Shown piece after piece: positions 41,634 through 48,726 of a DNA stretch of 64,000 nt. The stretch is taken from the NCBI GenBank assembly GCA_035457485.1, contig DATIBO010000006.1, positions 818,659-882,658 on the forward strand. The letters run 5' to 3'. The position numbers and the translations under genes were made by a program. The notes beneath the pieces were generated by a model, which made no database searches, was not told the origin of the DNA, and worked only from the letters and a program-made list of their open reading frames with translations. The first letter of the stretch is position 1, and each line of letters opens with the position of its first letter. Origin of the DNA: Candidatus Saccharimonadales bacterium (GTDB lineage Bacteria > Patescibacteriota > Saccharimonadia > Saccharimonadales > EFPC-124).

Positions 41634-41663
41634 AAAAGCGCGCCTGTATAAGGCGCGCTTTTT
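41634..41663. terminator. Bidirectional intrinsic terminator between convergent genes
   Basis: GCGCGCC (41638-41644) pairs with GGCGCGC (41652-41658), with an A4 run upstream and a T5 run downstream. Confidence 0.8.
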
Positions 41664-41669
41664 ATTTGG

Positions 41670-44528
41670 CTAGTTTTTTTCGAGCGAAATTTCTAGCTCT
41701 ACCCCATCAACCTTACATTTTGCCTCAAACTTGTACGTTTTATCCGATATTTCTTCGGCTAGGGTTTCGGCTGCTATTGTCGCGCTATGTTCTTCAATCG
41801 CTTTTTTAAGCTCCTCGTCATTCGTTACAAGACTTAACTTTATGCGATCATCAACTTGTAGATCGGCTTGTTTGCGCGCGTTTTGCACATTGCGAACAAC
41901 TTCGCGCATTTGTCCTTCGCGCTTTAACTCGGGAGTGATTTTAACGTCGAGTTCAACTTTTTTACCCCACTCAACTTGCTTAACATTTACTTCGTCGGCA
42001 ATCACCTCTTTGTAAATATCGTCGAGTTTCGGTACAGCAACTTTTTGCAAAGGCTGACGAACTTTGACTTTGGCGGCAGCGCGCTGGCTCAACCCTTCGT
42101 TAATGTATTCGCGCGTTTTTGCCATTTGGTCCAATAGACTCTGATCAACTTCACTCGCTTTTGGCCAATCACTCAAGTGAACAGACTCGCCCCCATTTAA
42201 GTCACGGTAAACTTTATCACTAATAAATGGAGCCCACGGCGCAAGCAACTGACAAGTCTTCACTAAAACGTAGTGCAAGGTTTCGTATGCGTGGTTTTTG
42301 TCGCTGTCGTCTTCACTCTTCCAAAAACGGCGACGGCTGCGCCGAATAAACCAATTAGACAGATCGTCGACCAGTTCAAAAACTGGATTAATCGCGTGCG
42401 CTAACTTGTAATCGTCGGCCTGCTTTGTAACTTCGACGATTGTTTGATTCAAGCGCGCTAAAATCCACTTATCTAGAACGTTTTCGCTATTTAACCGGCC
42501 AACTGGCTTAAAGTTGTCGATGTCGGCGTACATTTTGTAAAAACGATACGAGTTCATGAGCGTCCCTAAAACATTGCGATTTAGGTCTTTCATGCCGTCG
42601 CGGTTAAAGCGCATATAGTCGGCGCTCACAGCTTGGTTGTTGCTAAGCAAATATAAGCGCAAGCTGTCGGCGCCCTCGTTGTTAAATACGTCGTCTAGTG
42701 GCGGATAGTTTTTTAGGCGTTTGCTTAATTTTTGACCATCGGCGGCCATGATCATGCCGTTAACCAGCACGTTTTTGTAGGCCGGGCGATCAAACAGGAT
42801 TGTCGAAATTACATGCTGGACATAAAACCAAAGCCGCGTTTGGTCCAAACCTTCGCCTATGTAGTCAGCTGGGAAAGATTTTTTAAACTTCTCCACGTTT
42901 TCGAACGGATAGTGCTGCTGCGCAACGGGCATCGACCCACTCTCGAACCAGCAGTCGATGACCTCTTCTACACGCCTGTAGGTTTTGCCGTCTTTTGTGA
43001 AAGTAATTTTATCGATAAACGGACGGTGTAAGTCGTCTACATCGATGTCGTTTCCGGCGAGTTTTTTAAGCTCGGCAATGCTTTCTACTACAATGTAATC
43101 ATCTTGGTTGGCCTCGTTTACCCAAACTGGCATCGGCGCACCCCAATAACGATTGCGGCTAATCGCCCAGTCGCGCGCACCGGCAAGCCACTTTCCAAAA
43201 CGACCATCTTTGATGTGGTTCGGGCTCCAATTAATGCTTTCGGCAGTTTTTAGCATCTGGTCTTTGATTTCAGAAACTTTTATAAACCAGGTGTCGATTG
43301 CGTAATACAAAAGTGGACTATCACAGCGATAACAAAACGGGTACGTGTGTTCTTTTGTTTCGGCAGCGAATACCATTCCGCGATCTGTTAAATGCGCGAT
43401 GATAGCTTTATCGGCACCTTTAAAAAATTTGCCTTCAACTTCGTCAAAGCCAATGCCGCCGACAATTTTACCGGCGGTATCTACCGTATGCAAGACATCT
43501 AAGACCTTCTCTGTTCCTAAACTTAGGTCATCTTCGCCGAAAGCTGGCGCAACGTGCAAAACACCGGTACCATCTTCGACACTTACAAAACTAGCTGGCC
43601 AAACTTTGTACATAAAGTCTGGGATTCCGGCCGCATACTTGTCGAGTTTAAATAATGGTTCATAGTTTTTGCCGATTAGCTCGTCGGCCTCGACTTCTTT
43701 TAAGATTTCAAAATCGTGCTCATCTTTAAAAACCTCATTTAGGCGTTTTTTAGCGACAATTAAAATCTCGCTGCCAGATTCTGTTTTTAGATCTACATAA
43801 ACATAAGTTTCGTTGGGGTTTACAGCGATCGCAGCGTTACCTGGTAAGCTCCAAGGGGTCGTTGTCCAGCCGAGCAAAGAGGCATCCTCACCTACTAATT
43901 TGAATTTTACAAACAAACTTGGATCTGGCACGTTATCACGATAGCCTTCGTTTACCTCAAAGTTGCTTAGAGGAGTTTCACATCGTGGACAATACGGCAT
44001 GCTTTTGTAGCCTTTATATAGCAAACCTTTGTCGTGAATTTGCTTCATTACCCACCAAACGCTTTCGGTGTAGTCGCGATCTACTGTTGCGTAGGCATTT
44101 TTAACATCAGTCCAACGGCCTATGCGGCCAAAAAAGTCCTCCCATTCACCTTTGTACATAAAGATAGATTCGCGGCAAGCGGCGTTAAACTTCTCAAGCC
44201 CGAGCTCTAAAATTTGCTTTTTACCGCTAACACCGAATTGTTTTTCGATTGCAAATTCAACAGGCAGTCCATGGCAGTCCCATCCGTTGCGACGCTCAAC
44301 ATAATAACCTTGCATGGTCTTATAGCGACCCAAGCTGTCTTTAATTGCAGTTACTAGGCTGTGGCCAAAGTGCGGCAAGCCATTTGCGAATGGCGGGCCA
44401 TCGTAAAAGCTAAAAACTTCAGAACCTTTGCGCTGCTGTAACGACTTTTCGAATGTGTTTTCTTTCTGCCAAGTTGCGAGCATTTCTTCTTCGATGTTCG
44501 CGAGATTGGATTTTTTTGGCTCTTCCAT
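41670..44528 (-). CDS. ileS: Isoleucyl-tRNA synthetase, type 2 (eukaryote-like) architecture
   Basis: HIGH region is YDGPPFANGLPHFGH and the KMSKS variant is GQKLSKRL. 952 aa. AAGGAG lies 4 nt before the ATG. Confidence 0.9.
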   Translation of the reverse strand: MEEPKKSNLANIEEEMLATWQKENTFEKSLQQRKGSEVFSFYDGPPFANGLPHFGHSLVTAIKDSLGRYKTMQGYYVERRNGWDCHGLPVEFAIEKQFGVSGKKQILELGLEKFNAACRESIFMYKGEWEDFFGRIGRWTDVKNAYATVDRDYTESVWWVMKQIHDKGLLYKGYKSMPYCPRCETPLSNFEVNEGYRDNVPDPSLFVKFKLVGEDASLLGWTTTPWSLPGNAAIAVNPNETYVYVDLKTESGSEILIVAKKRLNEVFKDEHDFEILKEVEADELIGKNYEPLFKLDKYAAGIPDFMYKVWPASFVSVEDGTGVLHVAPAFGEDDLSLGTEKVLDVLHTVDTAGKIVGGIGFDEVEGKFFKGADKAIIAHLTDRGMVFAAETKEHTYPFCYRCDSPLLYYAIDTWFIKVSEIKDQMLKTAESINWSPNHIKDGRFGKWLAGARDWAISRNRYWGAPMPVWVNEANQDDYIVVESIAELKKLAGNDIDVDDLHRPFIDKITFTKDGKTYRRVEEVIDCWFESGSMPVAQQHYPFENVEKFKKSFPADYIGEGLDQTRLWFYVQHVISTILFDRPAYKNVLVNGMIMAADGQKLSKRLKNYPPLDDVFNNEGADSLRLYLLSNNQAVSADYMRFNRDGMKDLNRNVLGTLMNSYRFYKMYADIDNFKPVGRLNSENVLDKWILARLNQTIVEVTKQADDYKLAHAINPVFELVDDLSNWFIRRSRRRFWKSEDDSDKNHAYETLHYVLVKTCQLLAPWAPFISDKVYRDLNGGESVHLSDWPKASEVDQSLLDQMAKTREYINEGLSQRAAAKVKVRQPLQKVAVPKLDDIYKEVIADEVNVKQVEWGKKVELDVKITPELKREGQMREVVRNVQNARKQADLQVDDRIKLSLVTNDEELKKAIEEHSATIAAETLAEEISDKTYKFEAKCKVDGVELEISLEKN

Positions 44529-44731
44529 ATTTCTCCTTTATAAATAAAAATCACTTCTTTTAGAAGTGTTGGAATCCTGGTTCAGGACGGTACCATCCAA
44601 CTTCCAAAAGAAGTGATTCTTGTGGCGCTTGTTTACTGGACTTACGAGCCAGGCCGGCGAGTTCTACTAAATTCTTCTCGCTACTTTCGCGGGTGATAGC
44701 CGCTAATCTGCCTTTAGGGCAAAGTGTATTT
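44529..44731 (-). promoter_or_regulatory. T-box-like tRNA-sensing leader of ileS
   Basis: The minus-strand RNA contains UUGGAUGGUACCGUCC (44601..44585), compared with the canonical core GGGUGGUACCGCG. An antiterminator-like GUUGG...CCAAC stem has a UGGUACC bulge. A CACUUCU-AAA-AGAAGUG hairpin plus AUUUUUAUUU (44568..44541) lies just before the SD. The upstream element GAGAAGAAUUUAGUAGAA is K-turn/S-turn-like. There are two AUC-A (Ile codon) candidates at 44697..44694 and 44617..44614. Confidence 0.6.
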
Positions 44732-44737
44732 AACTTT

Positions 44738-44765
44738 ATTTTACGGTATTAGCAAAAAAATTCAA
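44738..44765 (-). promoter_or_regulatory. Promoter candidate for the ileS leader
   Basis: The minus strand reads TTGAAT (44765..44760), a 16-nt spacer, then TAAAAT (44743..44738). Confidence 0.4.
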
Positions 44766-44840: not shown

Positions 44841-45032
44841 TCATGATGTGGCAGATTCTAACCTAGTAATTCTTAGTTCATGATCAACAACCTTCTCGAG
44901 GGTTGGCGACATTCCTTCGATAATCGCCTCAATTTTACCATCTGTTTCCTCATGCAAAACTTCTAAACGCCGAATATCTGACTGCATTTGATCTAATTTT
45001 TCTAAAACTTTTTCTTCAAATTCTTTTGCCAT
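44841..45032 (-). CDS. Hypothetical small coiled-coil protein (63 aa)
   Basis: ORF with heptad-like E/K/L-rich sequence and no motif. Confidence 0.35.
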   Translation of the reverse strand: MAKEFEEKVLEKLDQMQSDIRRLEVLHEETDGKIEAIIEGMSPTLEKVVDHELRITRLESATS

Positions 45033-45055: not shown

Positions 45056-45658
45056 CTAGCCCCACAAGCTTTTACCAAATTTCACAACAACCAGTACAAC
45101 CATTAATACCAGCCAGCTAGCAACAATCAGTTTATCGTAATCCTTTTTAAGAAGTTTTATGATTTTTGCGTGTGTATTTTTAGACAAATTAAATGTGTTC
45201 TCTAACAAGTTAAACCGCAAAAATGCGTCGAAGATTATTGTTGTTACTACAGTCACGAACAAGCACCACGGACACAAAACCTCAATAACATACACACTCT
45301 GAAAAAACAGCCAGTAGGCAAAAATCAGCCCGAGCAAAGCACCAATTTGGGCGCCAACCATAAACCAAGGTTTATAACGCGCGCCCGCCAAGTAACCGAT
45401 CGCCAAAGTTATAACTACTGGGTAGGCCATTAATCCAATAAACGGATTTGGAAATCCAAACAAGCTGGACTGCCAAGTTTTCATAACCGTTGCGCAGTTT
45501 AAAACTAAATTAACGGTGCAGCTTAAAATTGCGTCAGGCTGCATCAGTAAGTGGATCTTTTCTATCGATAAAACAAATGCCGCCGCCAATCCCACAAAAG
45601 CTGCTACGGCTATAGTTGTAAAAAGTGCATTATAATTGTTTGTTTGGTTCTGCGCCAT
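45056..45658 (-). CDS. Vitamin K epoxide reductase (VKOR) family membrane oxidoreductase
   Basis: Loop cysteine pair (SCTVNLVLNC) and CxxC in a TM helix (LCPWCLF). About 5 TMs. Start chosen at ATG 45658 (MAQNQTNNY...). Confidence 0.7.
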   Translation of the reverse strand: MAQNQTNNYNALFTTIAVAAFVGLAAAFVLSIEKIHLLMQPDAILSCTVNLVLNCATVMKTWQSSLFGFPNPFIGLMAYPVVITLAIGYLAGARYKPWFMVGAQIGALLGLIFAYWLFFQSVYVIEVLCPWCLFVTVVTTIIFDAFLRFNLLENTFNLSKNTHAKIIKLLKKDYDKLIVASWLVLMVVLVVVKFGKSLWG

Positions 45659-45932
45659 AAAGTTGCCTTTCATCTGTAACATAGTAACTAAGTTCGCTAA
45701 TTAACGGAAAATGTCCGCCGCGCCAACTGTTTTGCAGTCGGCCCTGATCGTCCATAACAATTATTGCCGGATATTCCATAATTTCGTAAAGCCGACACAA
45801 ATCAGCACCTTCGCGCGAATCTACATCTAAGATTGGCAGGTCATGCCCTGTTTGACTTTTAAAATCACGTAGAAAACTTTCTACCGCTGTGGCATGTTCG
45901 GAGTTAGGACGATACAAAACAAGCGTCTTCAT
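45630..45932 (-). CDS. Thioredoxin/glutaredoxin-fold-like small protein lacking the CxxC motif
   Basis: 100 aa. MKTLVLYRPNSEHA... has NSEH where a CxxC would sit after beta-1. It overlaps the VKOR start by 29 nt. The fold call comes from the sequence pattern only. Confidence 0.4.
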   Translation of the reverse strand: MKTLVLYRPNSEHATAVESFLRDFKSQTGHDLPILDVDSREGADLCRLYEIMEYPAIIVMDDQGRLQNSWRGGHFPLISELSYYVTDERQLYGAEPNKQL

Positions 45933-45966: not shown

Positions 45967-45991
45967 AAGAGGCCGCACTTGGCGACCTCTT
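45967..45991 (-). terminator. Hairpin terminator after nrdJ
   Basis: On the minus strand, AAGAGGUCGC-CAAGU-GCGGCCUCUU is followed by GUUUAUUU. It lies 20 nt after the nrdJ stop. Confidence 0.6.
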
Positions 45992-46011: not shown

Positions 46012-48726
46012 TTAGCTACAACCGCTCGTACTACCGCAGACAGTGCATACGTAACAGCTGCCCGCACGCTGCGTGGTATTGCCGCAACTTGTGCATAAAG
46101 GTGATGTTTGTACACTTTTGCGATTTGCCGTAAGAGCTTCAGCCTTTACTTTTTTGGGCTCCTCGGGTAAAAAGCTAGTTTGCTCAGTCTCTACTTGTTT
46201 GTCCAACTCGTCAAAACTGGCAAGCCCAAGTTCTAGGCGATCGTCGAAGCTTAGGTAGTCTAGGGCTAAGCGCCTAAAGATATAGTCGATCAAACTTGTT
46301 GCAGTCTTAACTTCTGGGTCGTCGGTCATACCCGATGGCGCGAAGCTCATACTGCTCAGAGTTTTAACGTAGCTCTTTAGTGGTACGCCGTACTGCAAAC
46401 CATGGCTAACGCTAATTGCAAAGCTATCCATTAAACCACTTAGGGTTGAGCCTTGTTTGGAGACACGCACGAAAAGTTCTCCCGGAGTTCCGTCTTCATA
46501 TTCACCTACAGTTACAAAGCCCTTCATGTCAGAAACATGGAACTCATAAGTGCGGCTAGTGCGACGACTTGGAAGTTCGCGTTTTACGGCGCCAGCCTTT
46601 ACAACTAGCTGAGGTGAAGTTGGAGTTTCGACGGCTTTTTCTTCCTTCTTTTTGCCGCTTAATGGCTGAGCGACTTTGCAGTTATCTCGGTAAATTGCGA
46701 TCGCTTTGATGCCCAATTTCCAAGCGTCAGTGTGGAGTTGTTCAACTTCCTCGACCGTTACGCTTTCTGGCATGTTTACAGTTTTACTAATTGCACCACT
46801 AATAAACGGCTGAACGGCGCCCATCATTTTTACGTGACCTAAGTAGTGAATTGCATTGTCGCCAACTGCACAAGCAAAGGCGTCATAGTGTTCTTTTTTA
46901 AGATGTGGAGCGTCAAGAACGGATCCGTGTTCGTTGATATAGTCAACAATTTCGTCGCTTTGAGATTGGTTGTAGCCCAAAGTTTTTAGCGCGCGTGGAA
47001 TTGTTTGGTTAACAATTTTCATTGATCCGCCACCTACCAAAACTTTGTGCTTAACTAGGCTAAAATCTGGTTCAACGCCGGTGGTGTCGCAGTCCATCAT
47101 AAAACCAATAGTTCCCGTTGGAGCAAGCACGCTGGCCTGCGCGTTTCGTACGCCATATTCTTGGCCCAAGGCCACAGCTTCGTCCCAGGTGTCGGCGGCG
47201 GCGCTTAGTAGTTCTTCGCTAACCATGCCAGCATCAATTTTATTAACAGCGTCGCGGTGCTTGCGCAAAACGCGGTTCATACCAAGACTGTCCTTTGCAT
47301 ATCCGGCGAAAGGACCAACACGCTTAGCGATCTTTGCGCTAGTTGCGTAAGCATGTCCGGTCATTATGGCGGTAACGGCTGCGGCTTGAGCGCGGCCCTC
47401 GTCGCTGTCGTAGGCTAAACCTTGGGCCATTAACATTGCGCCCAAGTTCGCGTAGCCCATTCCAATTTGACGGAATGCGCGAGTGTTTTTATCGATACTC
47501 TCAGTTGGATATTCCGAGTAACCACACAAAATTTCTTGCGCCAAAAAGACCACTTCAACACTGTGCTTGTAAGCTGGAATGTCAAAAGTGCCGTCTTCTT
47601 TTAAGAATTTAAGCAAGTTTAGGCTGGCCAAGTTACACGCTGAGTTGTCTAGGTGCATGTATTCGGAACATGGGTTGCTACCGTTAATTCGGCCAGCTTT
47701 TGGTGTTGTGTGCCAGTCGTTAATCGTACCATCGTACTGCACACCAGGGTCGGCACACTCCCAAGAAGCTTGGGCGATCTGTCGCCACAAGTCGCGAGCT
47801 TTAAGAGTTTTGTAGACTTTTTTATCTTTTACACCAATTAAGTCCCAGTCTTGGTCGTTTTCTACAGCCTTCATAAACGCGTCTGTTACCCGAACTGAGT
47901 TGTTGGCATTTTGGTACTGGATCGAAACAGCATCTTCGCCGTTTAGGCTCATATCGAAACCGTTGTCTCGTAGTACTCGGATCTTACGTTCTTCGCGTGC
48001 TTTACACCAAATGAATTTTTCTACATCTGGATGGTCAATGTTTAAAATCACCATCTTTGCAGCACGGCGAGTTTTACCACCGCTTGCAATTGTGCCGGCG
48101 CTGGAGTCAGCGCCACGCATAAAGCTAACTGGACCGCTGGCCTTGCCATTACTGCCGCTTAGACGTTCGTAGCTCGAACGCAAGTTGCTTAGGTTTAAGC
48201 CGGCGCCAGAACCGCCTTTAAAAATCATACCTTCTTCACGGTACCAGTTTAAAATCGAAGGCAGAGTGTCTTCAACTTTTAAGATAAAACAAGCACTAGC
48301 CTGCTGCCTCCGACCAGTCGCACCAATGTTAAACCAAACCGGGCTGTTAAAAGCTGCTCGCTGAGTAGCTAAAATGTATTTTAGCTCATCGTTAAATGTG
48401 TCGGCCTCGGCCTCATCAATAAAATAGCCTTGCTCGTAGCCATATTTGGTAATCGTATCGGCAACACGATCAACTAATTGGCGCAAAGATTTTTCCCGTT
48501 CTTCAGTGCCGGGTGTGCCCCAAAAATATTTTTGAGCAACAATGTTAATTGCGTTTAAGGACCAACTCTCGGGGAATTCTACGCCTTTTTGTTCAAAGAC
48601 AACTTTTCCGGTCGCTGGGTTTATAATTTGCGCATCACGTTTTACCCAATTTAACGCGTCGTAAGGGCTCGTGCCCTCATCTGTAAAATAGCGACCTAGC
48701 GCCAATGTGGCAGTTACATCCGCCAT
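46012..48726 (-). CDS. nrdJ: Class II (adenosylcobalamin-dependent) ribonucleotide reductase
   Basis: 904 aa. The active-site region is SNPCSEYMHLDNSACNLASLNL. The Cys-rich C-terminal tail is CTSCGNTTQRAGSCYVCTVCGSTSGCS. AAGGAGGGG SD. Confidence 0.85.
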   Translation of the reverse strand: MADVTATLALGRYFTDEGTSPYDALNWVKRDAQIINPATGKVVFEQKGVEFPESWSLNAINIVAQKYFWGTPGTEEREKSLRQLVDRVADTITKYGYEQGYFIDEAEADTFNDELKYILATQRAAFNSPVWFNIGATGRRQQASACFILKVEDTLPSILNWYREEGMIFKGGSGAGLNLSNLRSSYERLSGSNGKASGPVSFMRGADSSAGTIASGGKTRRAAKMVILNIDHPDVEKFIWCKAREERKIRVLRDNGFDMSLNGEDAVSIQYQNANNSVRVTDAFMKAVENDQDWDLIGVKDKKVYKTLKARDLWRQIAQASWECADPGVQYDGTINDWHTTPKAGRINGSNPCSEYMHLDNSACNLASLNLLKFLKEDGTFDIPAYKHSVEVVFLAQEILCGYSEYPTESIDKNTRAFRQIGMGYANLGAMLMAQGLAYDSDEGRAQAAAVTAIMTGHAYATSAKIAKRVGPFAGYAKDSLGMNRVLRKHRDAVNKIDAGMVSEELLSAAADTWDEAVALGQEYGVRNAQASVLAPTGTIGFMMDCDTTGVEPDFSLVKHKVLVGGGSMKIVNQTIPRALKTLGYNQSQSDEIVDYINEHGSVLDAPHLKKEHYDAFACAVGDNAIHYLGHVKMMGAVQPFISGAISKTVNMPESVTVEEVEQLHTDAWKLGIKAIAIYRDNCKVAQPLSGKKKEEKAVETPTSPQLVVKAGAVKRELPSRRTSRTYEFHVSDMKGFVTVGEYEDGTPGELFVRVSKQGSTLSGLMDSFAISVSHGLQYGVPLKSYVKTLSSMSFAPSGMTDDPEVKTATSLIDYIFRRLALDYLSFDDRLELGLASFDELDKQVETEQTSFLPEEPKKVKAEALTANRKSVQTSPLCTSCGNTTQRAGSCYVCTVCGSTSGCS

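Follow-up and report, generated by a model that had tools for sequence, protein, structure and literature searches.

Introduction

What lies in the gap in front of the ileS gene of a bacterium from the candidate phyla radiation (CPR), and does it regulate that gene? The window analyzed here is the whole stretch of 64,000 nucleotides (nt) from a Candidatus Saccharimonadales bacterium (assembly GCA_035457485.1, contig DATIBO010000006.1, positions 818,659 to 882,658), and all positions below count from its first letter. On its minus strand it carries ileS (41670-44528), which encodes an isoleucine--tRNA ligase (IleRS) of 952 amino acids (aa) (TIGR00392, 898 bits). The ATG of ileS at 44528 is separated by 312 nt from the end of the upstream open reading frame (ORF) at 44841, a distance already recorded in an initial annotation, which proposed that the gap holds a compact T-box sensing tRNA-Ile. 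We find that the ileS leader is very probably such an element and that it most likely acts through transcription attenuation.

Among the riboswitches that work by RNA-RNA sensing, T-boxes have been studied best, and they are being investigated as antibiotic targets. They are known from Firmicutes, Actinobacteria, Chloroflexi and Deinococcus-Thermus, plus sporadic transfers. Saccharibacteria are ultra-reduced epibionts that have very few regulators and are unable to make amino acids.

Conservation and covariation of the ileS leader

The leader was found to fold far below its shuffles, with a free energy of -62.3 kcal/mol (z = -4.9, 0 of 200 shuffles). The minimum free energy (MFE) fold holds the helix GUUGGA/UCCAAC with a 7-nt bulge, UGGUACC, capped by a second helix. 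No family of Rfam matched anywhere in the 64-kb window at the gathering score. Since the MFE fold displayed the anatomy of a T-box antiterminator in spite of this, comparative data were examined. Using the N-terminal 248 aa of IleRS as the query, we retrieved 80 loci with 56-88% identity from a genome collection. Nearly all of them are labelled Candidatus Saccharibacteria, Saccharimonadia or Patescibacteria, which identifies the source organism of the window as a Saccharibacterium of the class Saccharimonadia. A strict T-box core pattern, [AG]ANNN[AG]G[AG]UGG[UC]ACC, was present 60-130 nt upstream of ileS in 58 of the approximately 77 loci that have upstream DNA, and the leaders of the relatives are visibly homologous along their full length.

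Forty-eight distinct leaders, including that of the window, were aligned by MAFFT on the basis of sequence only, and seven helices were annotated: Stem I, the lower and upper parts of Stem II, IIA, the closing pairs of Stem III, A1 and A2. The invariant columns of this alignment are AUC, GAA, U-A-x-A, CG, AAG and UGG-ACC. Across the seven helices 93.4% of the cells are paired, compared with 70.0% after column shuffling (0 of 500) and 33-43% when the partners were slid by 1-3 columns; the covariation score is 0.66, as against 0.24 for shuffled and at most 0.14 for slid partners. Compensatory changes occur in 26 of the 30 pairs, so that the covariation on which the initial annotation had staked its proposal is clearly present. 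RNAalifold, unaided, returned Stem I, both parts of Stem II, A1 with its 7-nt bulge, and A2, in total 22 pairs of which 20 are compensatory.

A covariance model built from the alignment (R1, with the window in its seed) matched 64 of the 80 loci at 75-119 bits, including 16 leaders outside the seed, and within the 64-kb window it matched the ileS leader only. In the model-based alignment of 64 sequences, 95.8% of the cells are paired. A leave-one-out model, from which the window was excluded and for which the structure was taken from RNAalifold, found the window leader at 93.6 bits (E ~3e-25) as its sole match in the 64 kb.

Rfam was also scanned with the window leader at E <= 10, with 20 relatives at the gathering score and, permissively, with 12 diverse relatives. 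The scan for the T-box family RF00230, suggested earlier as a check, had a divided outcome: the window gave no match, a result named beforehand as counting against the proposal, and relatives did. In the permissive scan five of the 12 relatives were matched exactly at the ileS leader, with 23.8-53.9 bits and E from 0.33 to 6e-9; the best was L066 (53.9 bits, E ~6e-9), and L059, L015, L029 and L020 scored 24-29 bits. The RF00230 alignments place Stem II (GAA...AGUA), CG...CCGUUA (IIA and the F-box) and AAGuG on the elements to which we had assigned them, and likewise Stem III, AA and then GGGUGGUACCGCG with A1 and A2. In L066 and L015 the GAA/AGUA of Stem II falls on the assigned S-turn element. 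Stem I of RF00230 shrinks in these alignments to a 4-base-pair (bp) hairpin with 76 model positions deleted. The lack of a match in the window is explained by the loss of about 76 Stem I positions together with the upper Stem II. The proposal of a compact tRNA-Ile T-box before ileS in a CPR-like genome is thus supported by covariation, by invariant motifs and by sub-threshold RF00230 matches on relatives, and we put the probability that the leader is a genuine T-box at about 95%.

The discriminator core and Stem III

The leader is about 188 nt long (44728-44541, minus strand) and lies upstream of an aminoacyl-tRNA synthetase gene on the same strand, which is the first of the T-box criteria that we took from the review PMC7583486 and from the Mtb ileS paper PMC11297988. 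Every sequence feature listed in the initial annotation was found on the minus strand where it had been reported, and all elements described below are on that strand. The discriminator core (44601-44568) consists of A1, GUUGGA/UCCAAC (44601-44596 with 44573-44568), a 7-nt bulge, UGGUACC (44595-44589), with UGGN as the published criteria describe, and the A2 hairpin GUCCUG-AAC-CAGGAU (44588-44574), whose closing pair G44588-U44574 is the published G-U terminal pair of A2. The segment UUGGAUGGUACCGUCC (44600-44585) had been read as the T-box core with a UGGU available for tRNA, and this reading holds. It agrees with the 14-nt consensus AGGGUGGNACCGCG at 10 of 14 positions, and the four mismatches all lie inside covarying helices. 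The bulge is conserved in 61 leaders, as UGGUACC in 58 and UGGCACC in three; it is always 7 nt, adjoins A1 and has UGGN at its 5' edge. The antiterminator-like helix GUUGG/CCAAC, also noted before, corresponds to A1, which is 99% paired with compensatory changes in five of its six pairs. For A2 these values are 98% and four of four. The usual discriminator base of bacterial tRNA-Ile(GAU) is A73, as UGGU would predict. The three UGGCACC leaders (L038, L055 and L078) predict G73 in their tRNA-Ile, or relaxed pairing.

The published order of a purine string, Stem III and AA is found upstream of A1. The string AAGCG (44630-44626), of which AAG is invariant, represents the RRRxG or 'RAG' motif as defined in PMC7583486 and PMC11297988. 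It is followed by Stem III, CCA-C-AAGAA (loop UCAC) UUCUU-U-UGG (44625-44604), and by the AA linker (44603-44602). The three closing pairs of Stem III covary and are 93-98% paired among the leaders. Stem III alone has an energy of -5.8 kcal/mol and is part of the MFE structure of a transcript that ends at the A1 3' strand.

Stem I, Stem II and the IIA/B pseudoknot

Stem I is ultrashort, being a 4-bp helix, GCGG/CCGC, with the 7-nt loop CUAUCAC (44703-44689). The loop contains the specifier AUC (44697-44695) and, next to it, the purine A44694. Among the 48 aligned leaders AUC is invariant (48 of 48), and the base after it is A, in a few cases G. Pairing in the stem amounts to 99.5-100%, with swaps among GC, UA, CG and AU. 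The codon followed by a purine thus fits the regulated amino acid, as AUC specifies Ile and the gene is ileS. A long Stem I with a distal platform of interdigitated T-loops is absent, the 4-bp hairpin being all of Stem I. Two AUC candidates for the specifier had been put forward, and the one in the GCGG-CUAUCAC-CCGC loop stands. The other, in AAGAAUCACUUC (44621-44610), was rejected, because these bases form the loop of Stem III together with its 3' side, and relatives do not conserve the AUC at this place. Judged from these sequence features, the leader very probably is a specific T-box that would sense tRNA-Ile(GAU). No tRNA gene was detected in the 64-kb window or in the 60 relative loci scanned (L001-L060).

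Stem I is followed by GA (44688-44687), by A-A (44686-44685) and by GUA (44684-44682), the 3' strand of the putative basal helix P0 described below. Stem II (44681-44657) then begins with the lower helix GCGAG/CUCGC, which shows compensatory changes in all five pairs, and continues with the S-turn strands AAGAA (44676-44672) and AGUAGAA (44668-44662) and a UUU cap. The GAA and U-A-x-A of the S-turn are invariant among the 48 leaders, and in the window the S-turn corresponds to the one formed in N. farcinica by G37-A38-A39 and G67, A69-G70-A71 (PMC7583486). The window is alone among the 48 seed leaders in missing the upper Stem II helix. The segment GAGAAGAAUUUAGUAGAA, or GAGAAGAA...AGUAGAA, had been taken for the K-turn/S-turn element of Stem I. 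It occupies 44679-44662, within Stem II, and both the alignment and the RF00230 mapping assign it to the Stem II S-turn instead.

The next 21 nt (44656-44636) form the IIA/B pseudoknot. IIA is CGG/UCG (44656-44654 with 44647-44645), 98% paired in the model-based alignment; UCGUAA (44647-44642) is F-box-like; and IIB is CUGG/CCAG (44652-44649 with 44639-44636). IIB reaches at least 4 bp in 27 of 45 leaders, and its length by itself barely exceeds that of shuffles (3.8 vs 3.1). The argument for the pseudoknot was therefore drawn from the register of IIB, which is constant among relatives whose sequences in this helix are highly diverse. A Stem II S-turn and a IIA/B pseudoknot with an F-box, as in published T-boxes, are thus present in the window, with the upper Stem II missing.

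Promoter-like site and base of the leader

The promoter-like TTGAAT-16-TAAAAT that had been reported upstream is present and well placed (44765-44738). It is a match to a consensus pattern only, and this pattern is not above chance (one found vs 1.4 expected), so it was used for position only. In the window the -10 box precedes the first paired base by 9 nt, and in the leaders of most relatives a TACAAT-like -10 box occurs 7-10 nt upstream of the basal helix. This recurrent spacing suggests that the transcript starts at the T-box, with the predicted start at about 44731, a few nt ahead of the first paired base.

The base of Stem I may be formed by a helix, P0, in which UAC (44728-44726) pairs with GUA (44684-44682). 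The relatives show the pair classes UCC/GGA, UGC/GCA, AGC/GCU and UAC/GUA, and a P0 partner is present in 52 of 60 leaders, compared with 41.5 +/- 2.9 for permuted partners (maximum 49). Where relatives have no insert at this place, their sequence resembles a K-turn: UCC-GUU-(U)GA-[Stem I]-GA-(A)GGA. In the window UA stands in place of the 5' GA, and the position of the K-turn bulge on the 5' strand is taken by the hairpin UUUGCC-CUAAA-GGCAGA (44723-44707). Many relatives have a hairpin insert of variable sequence at the Stem I base, and leaders of the L001 type are without it. Because the generic P0 test is only moderately discriminating, we regard both P0 and the K-turn as tentative.

Predicted terminator and proposed switch geometry

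The leader ends in a run of U residues, UUUUUAUUUA (44550-44541), and a U-run follows the 3' arm in most relatives too. The hairpin CACUUCU-AAA-AGAAGUG (44568-44552) plus this U-run had been identified in the initial annotation as competing with the antiterminator. The hairpin is indeed present, has an energy of -7.0 kcal/mol and overlaps A1 by 1 nt, but the main terminator is most likely a long helix formed by 44621-44600 with 44567-44546. The U-run ends 1-2 nt ahead of the Shine-Dalgarno (SD) sequence AAAGGAG (44539-44533) and not about 10 nt before it as had been stated; it is the small hairpin whose end lies farther upstream, at 13 nt from the SD and 23 nt from the ATG. Both the SD and the start codon (44528-44526) are unpaired in every predicted fold. 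The arrangement of a hairpin directly followed by a U-run, with the SD outside, is conserved among the relatives, and strong hairpin-plus-U terminators are found at gene ends elsewhere in the window. Counts of the terminator pattern are not enriched over shuffles, and the pattern was used for position only. Given the hairpin with its U-run, the free SD, the lack of an anti-SD segment and the use of hairpin-plus-U terminators at gene ends, the leader most likely controls ileS by transcription attenuation.

Folding of the alternative structures gave an ON model at -18.5 kcal/mol and a long-hairpin OFF model, the MFE structure, at -37.0 kcal/mol. A transcript that reaches the A1 3' strand is predicted to fold as Stem III plus A1, the bulge and A2 (-17.2 kcal/mol). 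With 17 nt more, the MFE structure flips to the long hairpin, at -29.6 and finally -37.0 kcal/mol. In this predicted hairpin Stem III and the AA purines are lost to the new pairing and the lowest two pairs of A1 change their register, and UGGA/UCCA, the bulge and A2 are kept.

The pairing of the terminator arm was examined in the relatives by taking the ~10 nt that precede the U-run and seeking their best partner in each leader. In about 30 leaders, including that of the window, this partner ends 1-6 nt upstream of A1. It consists of the 3' half of Stem III and the linker or, in leaders without Stem III, of the AAG-UCCC string. In the window the arm pairs with 12 contiguous nt that end 5 nt before A1. 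The pairing is leader-specific: in 41 leaders an arm forms 7.41 bp with its own partner and 4.87 bp with foreign ones (permutation 5.1 +/- 0.2, 0 of 1000). A terminator built from the 3' halves of A1 and A2 was also tried and was rejected, as in most leaders the helix is no longer than in shuffles (mean 5.1 bp vs 5.5). The published criterion that the 5' strand of the terminator be made of the A1 and A2 3' strands therefore does not describe this leader, in which the predicted 5' arm is Stem III and the linker (44621-44600). Stem III and the terminator helix are the two structures that exclude each other, and both covary.

Since the two helices exclude each other and both covary, we propose that tRNA would act by delaying the terminator arm. 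The ultrashort Stem I would display the Ile codon AUC and its purine in the 7-nt hairpin loop and, as in the established T-box mechanism, an aminoacyl group on the tRNA would block docking. In the OFF state the 22 nt after A1 (44567-44546) would invade Stem III and the AA linker (44621-44600). This invasion would lengthen A1 downward into one long hairpin abutting the U-run, and RNA polymerase would terminate. In the ON state uncharged tRNA-Ile would lock the discriminator fold of Stem III and the purine string, which would delay the invasion and allow read-through into ileS. We regard this Stem III displacement, modelled from predicted folds and covariation, as an even bet.

Alternative explanations

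Several observations weigh against the leader being a T-box of the kind proposed here. RF00230 does not match the window leader even at E <= 10, where only snoRNA and miRNA noise families appeared; its gathering score of 93 bits was reached by no leader scanned, and the 20 relatives scanned at gathering gave no match. The match to anticodon GAU and A73 rests on general knowledge, with no tRNA-Ile gene in the loci scanned. Only 20 of 61 leaders close A2 with G-U; 28 have G-C there and 13 another pair. The missing upper Stem II helix could impair the S-turn of the window. Approximately 12 relatives are without Stem III altogether, and Stem III and the purine string are described as indispensable for binding of the tRNA 3' end (PMC7583486). 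As a rule, T-boxes act on transcription only when a long Stem I provides an elbow-binding platform, and an ultrashort Stem I indicates translational control (PMC7583486); a kinetic transcriptional switch is thus less expected here, where that platform is absent. The switch geometry rests on thermodynamic prediction and covariation, 16 relatives use a separate downstream hairpin, and L026 has a canonical terminator. Finally, the OFF hairpin is predicted to retain A1, A2 and the bulge, and it is not obvious what would then keep tRNA from binding to it.

These points bear in different ways on four other explanations. That the resemblance arose by chance, for instance in an autoregulatory site bound by a protein or in the upstream gene's terminator, would account for the failure of RF00230 on the window itself. 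Yet many T-box hallmarks occur in the right order and spacing and are conserved and covarying across 64 genomes, the curated RF00230 recognizes homologous leaders with E down to ~6e-9, and the specifier fits the amino acid of the downstream synthetase. The absence of a tRNA sensor is effectively refuted. The leader could instead derive from a T-box and have lost its response to tRNA, persisting as a constitutive attenuator or a stabilizing 5' structure. The upper Stem II lost by the window alone of the 48 seed leaders, and the approximately 12 related lineages that lost or never possessed the element, are in keeping with such decay. We consider it improbable all the same, because the family invariants are intact in the window (AUC-A, GAA, UA.A, CG, AAG, UGGUACC and the G-U at A2), all window helices are complementary, the leave-one-out score of 93.6 bits falls inside the family range of 75-119 bits, and a constitutive terminator of -37 kcal/mol before an essential single-copy gene would harm.

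The other two explanations accept a functional T-box and differ in its output. In a translational T-box of the actinobacterial ileS kind, the SD would be masked or exposed and the U-run would be incidental. The decoding half, with its ultrashort Stem I, S-turn and IIA/B, has the architecture described for those translational T-boxes, and the literature ties an ultrashort Stem I to translational control (PMC7583486). The SD, on the other hand, is downstream of the U-run (44539-44533) and unpaired in all predicted folds, the leader contains no CUCCUU-like anti-SD segment, and relatives conserve the hairpin-then-U-run order with the SD outside. Control by SD sequestration was rejected on the grounds that the SD is unpaired and an anti-SD segment absent, and we hold a translational output to be highly improbable. 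The remaining explanation is a conventional switch as in Firmicutes, antiterminator versus terminator, in which the small hairpin (44568-44552) and the U-run are the real terminator and the ON state sequesters the 5' arm of this hairpin by an extension of A1 (GGAAGU 44605-44600 with ACUUCU 44567-44562). A consensus terminator scan selects the small hairpin, which overlaps the A1 3' strand by 1 nt and whose ACUUCU is complementary to GGAAGU; a local hairpin is also quicker to form than a long-range helix, and the separate downstream hairpin of 16 relatives (GACACCGC..GCGGUGU) overlaps the last 3 nt of A1. This switch is nevertheless unlikely in our view. The small hairpin is weak (-7.0 vs -37.0 kcal/mol for the long helix), and it is absent in L030 and L033, whose discriminators are the most similar and which have the enclosing helix only. 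In the 41 leaders of the same layout it is the Stem III region, rather than the 3' halves of A1 and A2, with which the arm covaries, and the proposed A1 extension belongs to the long OFF hairpin as well. Attenuation by displacement of Stem III is thus the output that we propose, at the strength given above.

Variation within the clade and neighboring genes

Twelve relatives are T-box-less in the ~230 nt upstream of ileS (L018, L031, L032, L041, L043, L064, L068, L070, L071, L072, L074 and L077). In these lineages ileS comes after the upstream gene via a short unstructured spacer, so that part of the class has either lost the element or never acquired it. The leaders without Stem III are those of L001, L003, L004, L010, L012, L034, L038, L040, L055, L063, L065 and L078. 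They read AAGUCCC-AAG-A1, and in them it is the AAG purine string itself that serves as the partner of the terminator arm. The separate downstream hairpin (GACACCGC...GCGGUGU) occurs in L035, L039, L044-L047, L050-L052, L054, L056-L058 and L060-L062, where the overlap is limited to the last 3 nt of A1 and the Stem III inserts are long and variable. The sensor is conserved, and the expression platform is far more variable.

In four relatives an extra unrelated ORF lies between the T-box and ileS: L006 (2156-2500, 114 aa), L012 (1748-2344, 198 aa, with a GDSNTWG motif), L028 (2151-2504, 117 aa) and L073 (1920-2501, 193 aa). These ORFs would be co-regulated by tRNA-Ile charging. Two of the loci, L002 (JAJDCK010000006.1) and L010 (JAJDCK010000015.1), come from the same metagenome-assembled genome, OFTM277, and each has ileS with its own T-box leader; this represents either two ileS copies or a mixed bin.

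In the window the ileS unit is monocistronic and is closed by a hairpin-plus-U terminator (41634-41662, minus strand) 8 nt past the stop codon, with a 12-bp stem containing seven G-C pairs. After the generic ileS model, the next-best models for IleRS are the mupirocin-resistance forms MupA and MupB (743-774 bits, far under their cutoffs), which is consistent with an earlier remark that the enzyme is a type-2 (eukaryote-like) IleRS. Upstream of the leader on the minus strand are a 63-aa ORF (44841-45032) without a family match and a 208-aa ORF (45056-45682) with a weak VKOR-family match (34 bits, under the cutoff). A gene for a B12-dependent ribonucleotide reductase (46012-48726) lies upstream as well, and a strong hairpin (45967-45991) directly follows its stop codon. 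The hairpins at 41634-41662 and 45967-45991 (minus strand) are flanked by A- and U-tracts and look like bidirectional intrinsic terminators.

Discussion

An ileS T-box in most Saccharimonadia would mean that direct monitoring of tRNA-Ile charging has been kept in ultra-reduced epibionts. The predicted dependence of ileS on tRNA-Ile is relevant to how Saccharibacteria sense the supply of amino acids from their hosts. The whole clade scores far under the Rfam gathering score, with the result that annotation of CPR genomes misses the element systematically; the covariance model from the present leaders could be used to annotate such leaders. TBDB used RF00230, and its ileS model was run over Actinobacteria only. 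We found no paper tying T-boxes to Saccharibacteria, Patescibacteria, CPR, TM7 or Saccharimonas, although coverage was incomplete and an earlier mention is possible. The finding adds a deep-branching phylum to the debate on the origin of T-boxes and on which class came first.

Three things set this leader apart from known T-boxes: its occurrence in this phylum, an ultrashort Stem I joined to a predicted terminator, and the proposed topology of that terminator. We tentatively suggest, as a view that we rate somewhat below an even chance, that these leaders constitute a distinct Saccharibacterial class of T-box, which would combine an elbow-less Stem I with a terminator, use a Stem III-displacement readout that keeps A1, the bulge and A2, and extend the range of T-boxes into the CPR. 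At ~165-190 nt, its members would rank among the smallest transcriptional T-boxes. If this is true, an elbow-less Stem I with a terminator contradicts the rule that transcriptional T-boxes need a long Stem I. The class would then put two current views to the test: that kinetic control cannot do without the Stem I platform, and that every T-box gives its output by disrupting A1. The CPR range would then fit an origin of T-boxes in a common ancestor of Terrabacteria-like lineages rather than in Firmicutes or Actinobacteria alone.

The closest known counterparts, compared by their published descriptions, are the ileS T-boxes of Actinobacteria (M. tuberculosis, M. smegmatis and N. farcinica). They regulate the same gene through the same AUC and purine, and they likewise have a very short Stem I with the specifier in its terminal loop and no elbow-binding platform. 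The Stem II S-turn GAA / GUAGA, the compact ~21-nt IIA/B, the RAG purines, Stem III, the 7-nt UGGN bulge and A1/A2 are also shared; the F-box reads CCGUCA in N. farcinica, UCGUAA in the window and CCGUAA or CCGUUA in its relatives. The window differs from them in belonging to another phylum, in the deletion of the upper Stem II and in the hairpin inserted at the Stem I base. It also differs in the predicted output. The actinobacterial elements are described as translational, with an SD sequestrator and antisequestrator, whereas sequestration of the SD in the OFF state, a trait of that class, is not seen in the window, where a hairpin and U-run before a free SD predict transcriptional control.

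The expression half instead recalls the transcriptional T-boxes of Firmicutes, such as B. subtilis tyrS and glyQS. These likewise have UGGN at the 5' edge of a 7-nt bulge by A1, a G-U closing pair in A2, the order RRRxG-Stem III-AA, a Stem II S-turn and an F-box, and their intrinsic terminator with its U-run also lies upstream of the SD and is much stabler than the ON fold. They possess a long Stem I, a T-loop platform and a specifier internal loop, whereas the window is without all three, with ~76 Rfam positions missing. In canonical T-boxes the A1 and A2 3' strands become the 5' strand of the terminator (PMC7583486); in the window this role would fall to Stem III and the linker, and A1 and A2 are predicted to persist.

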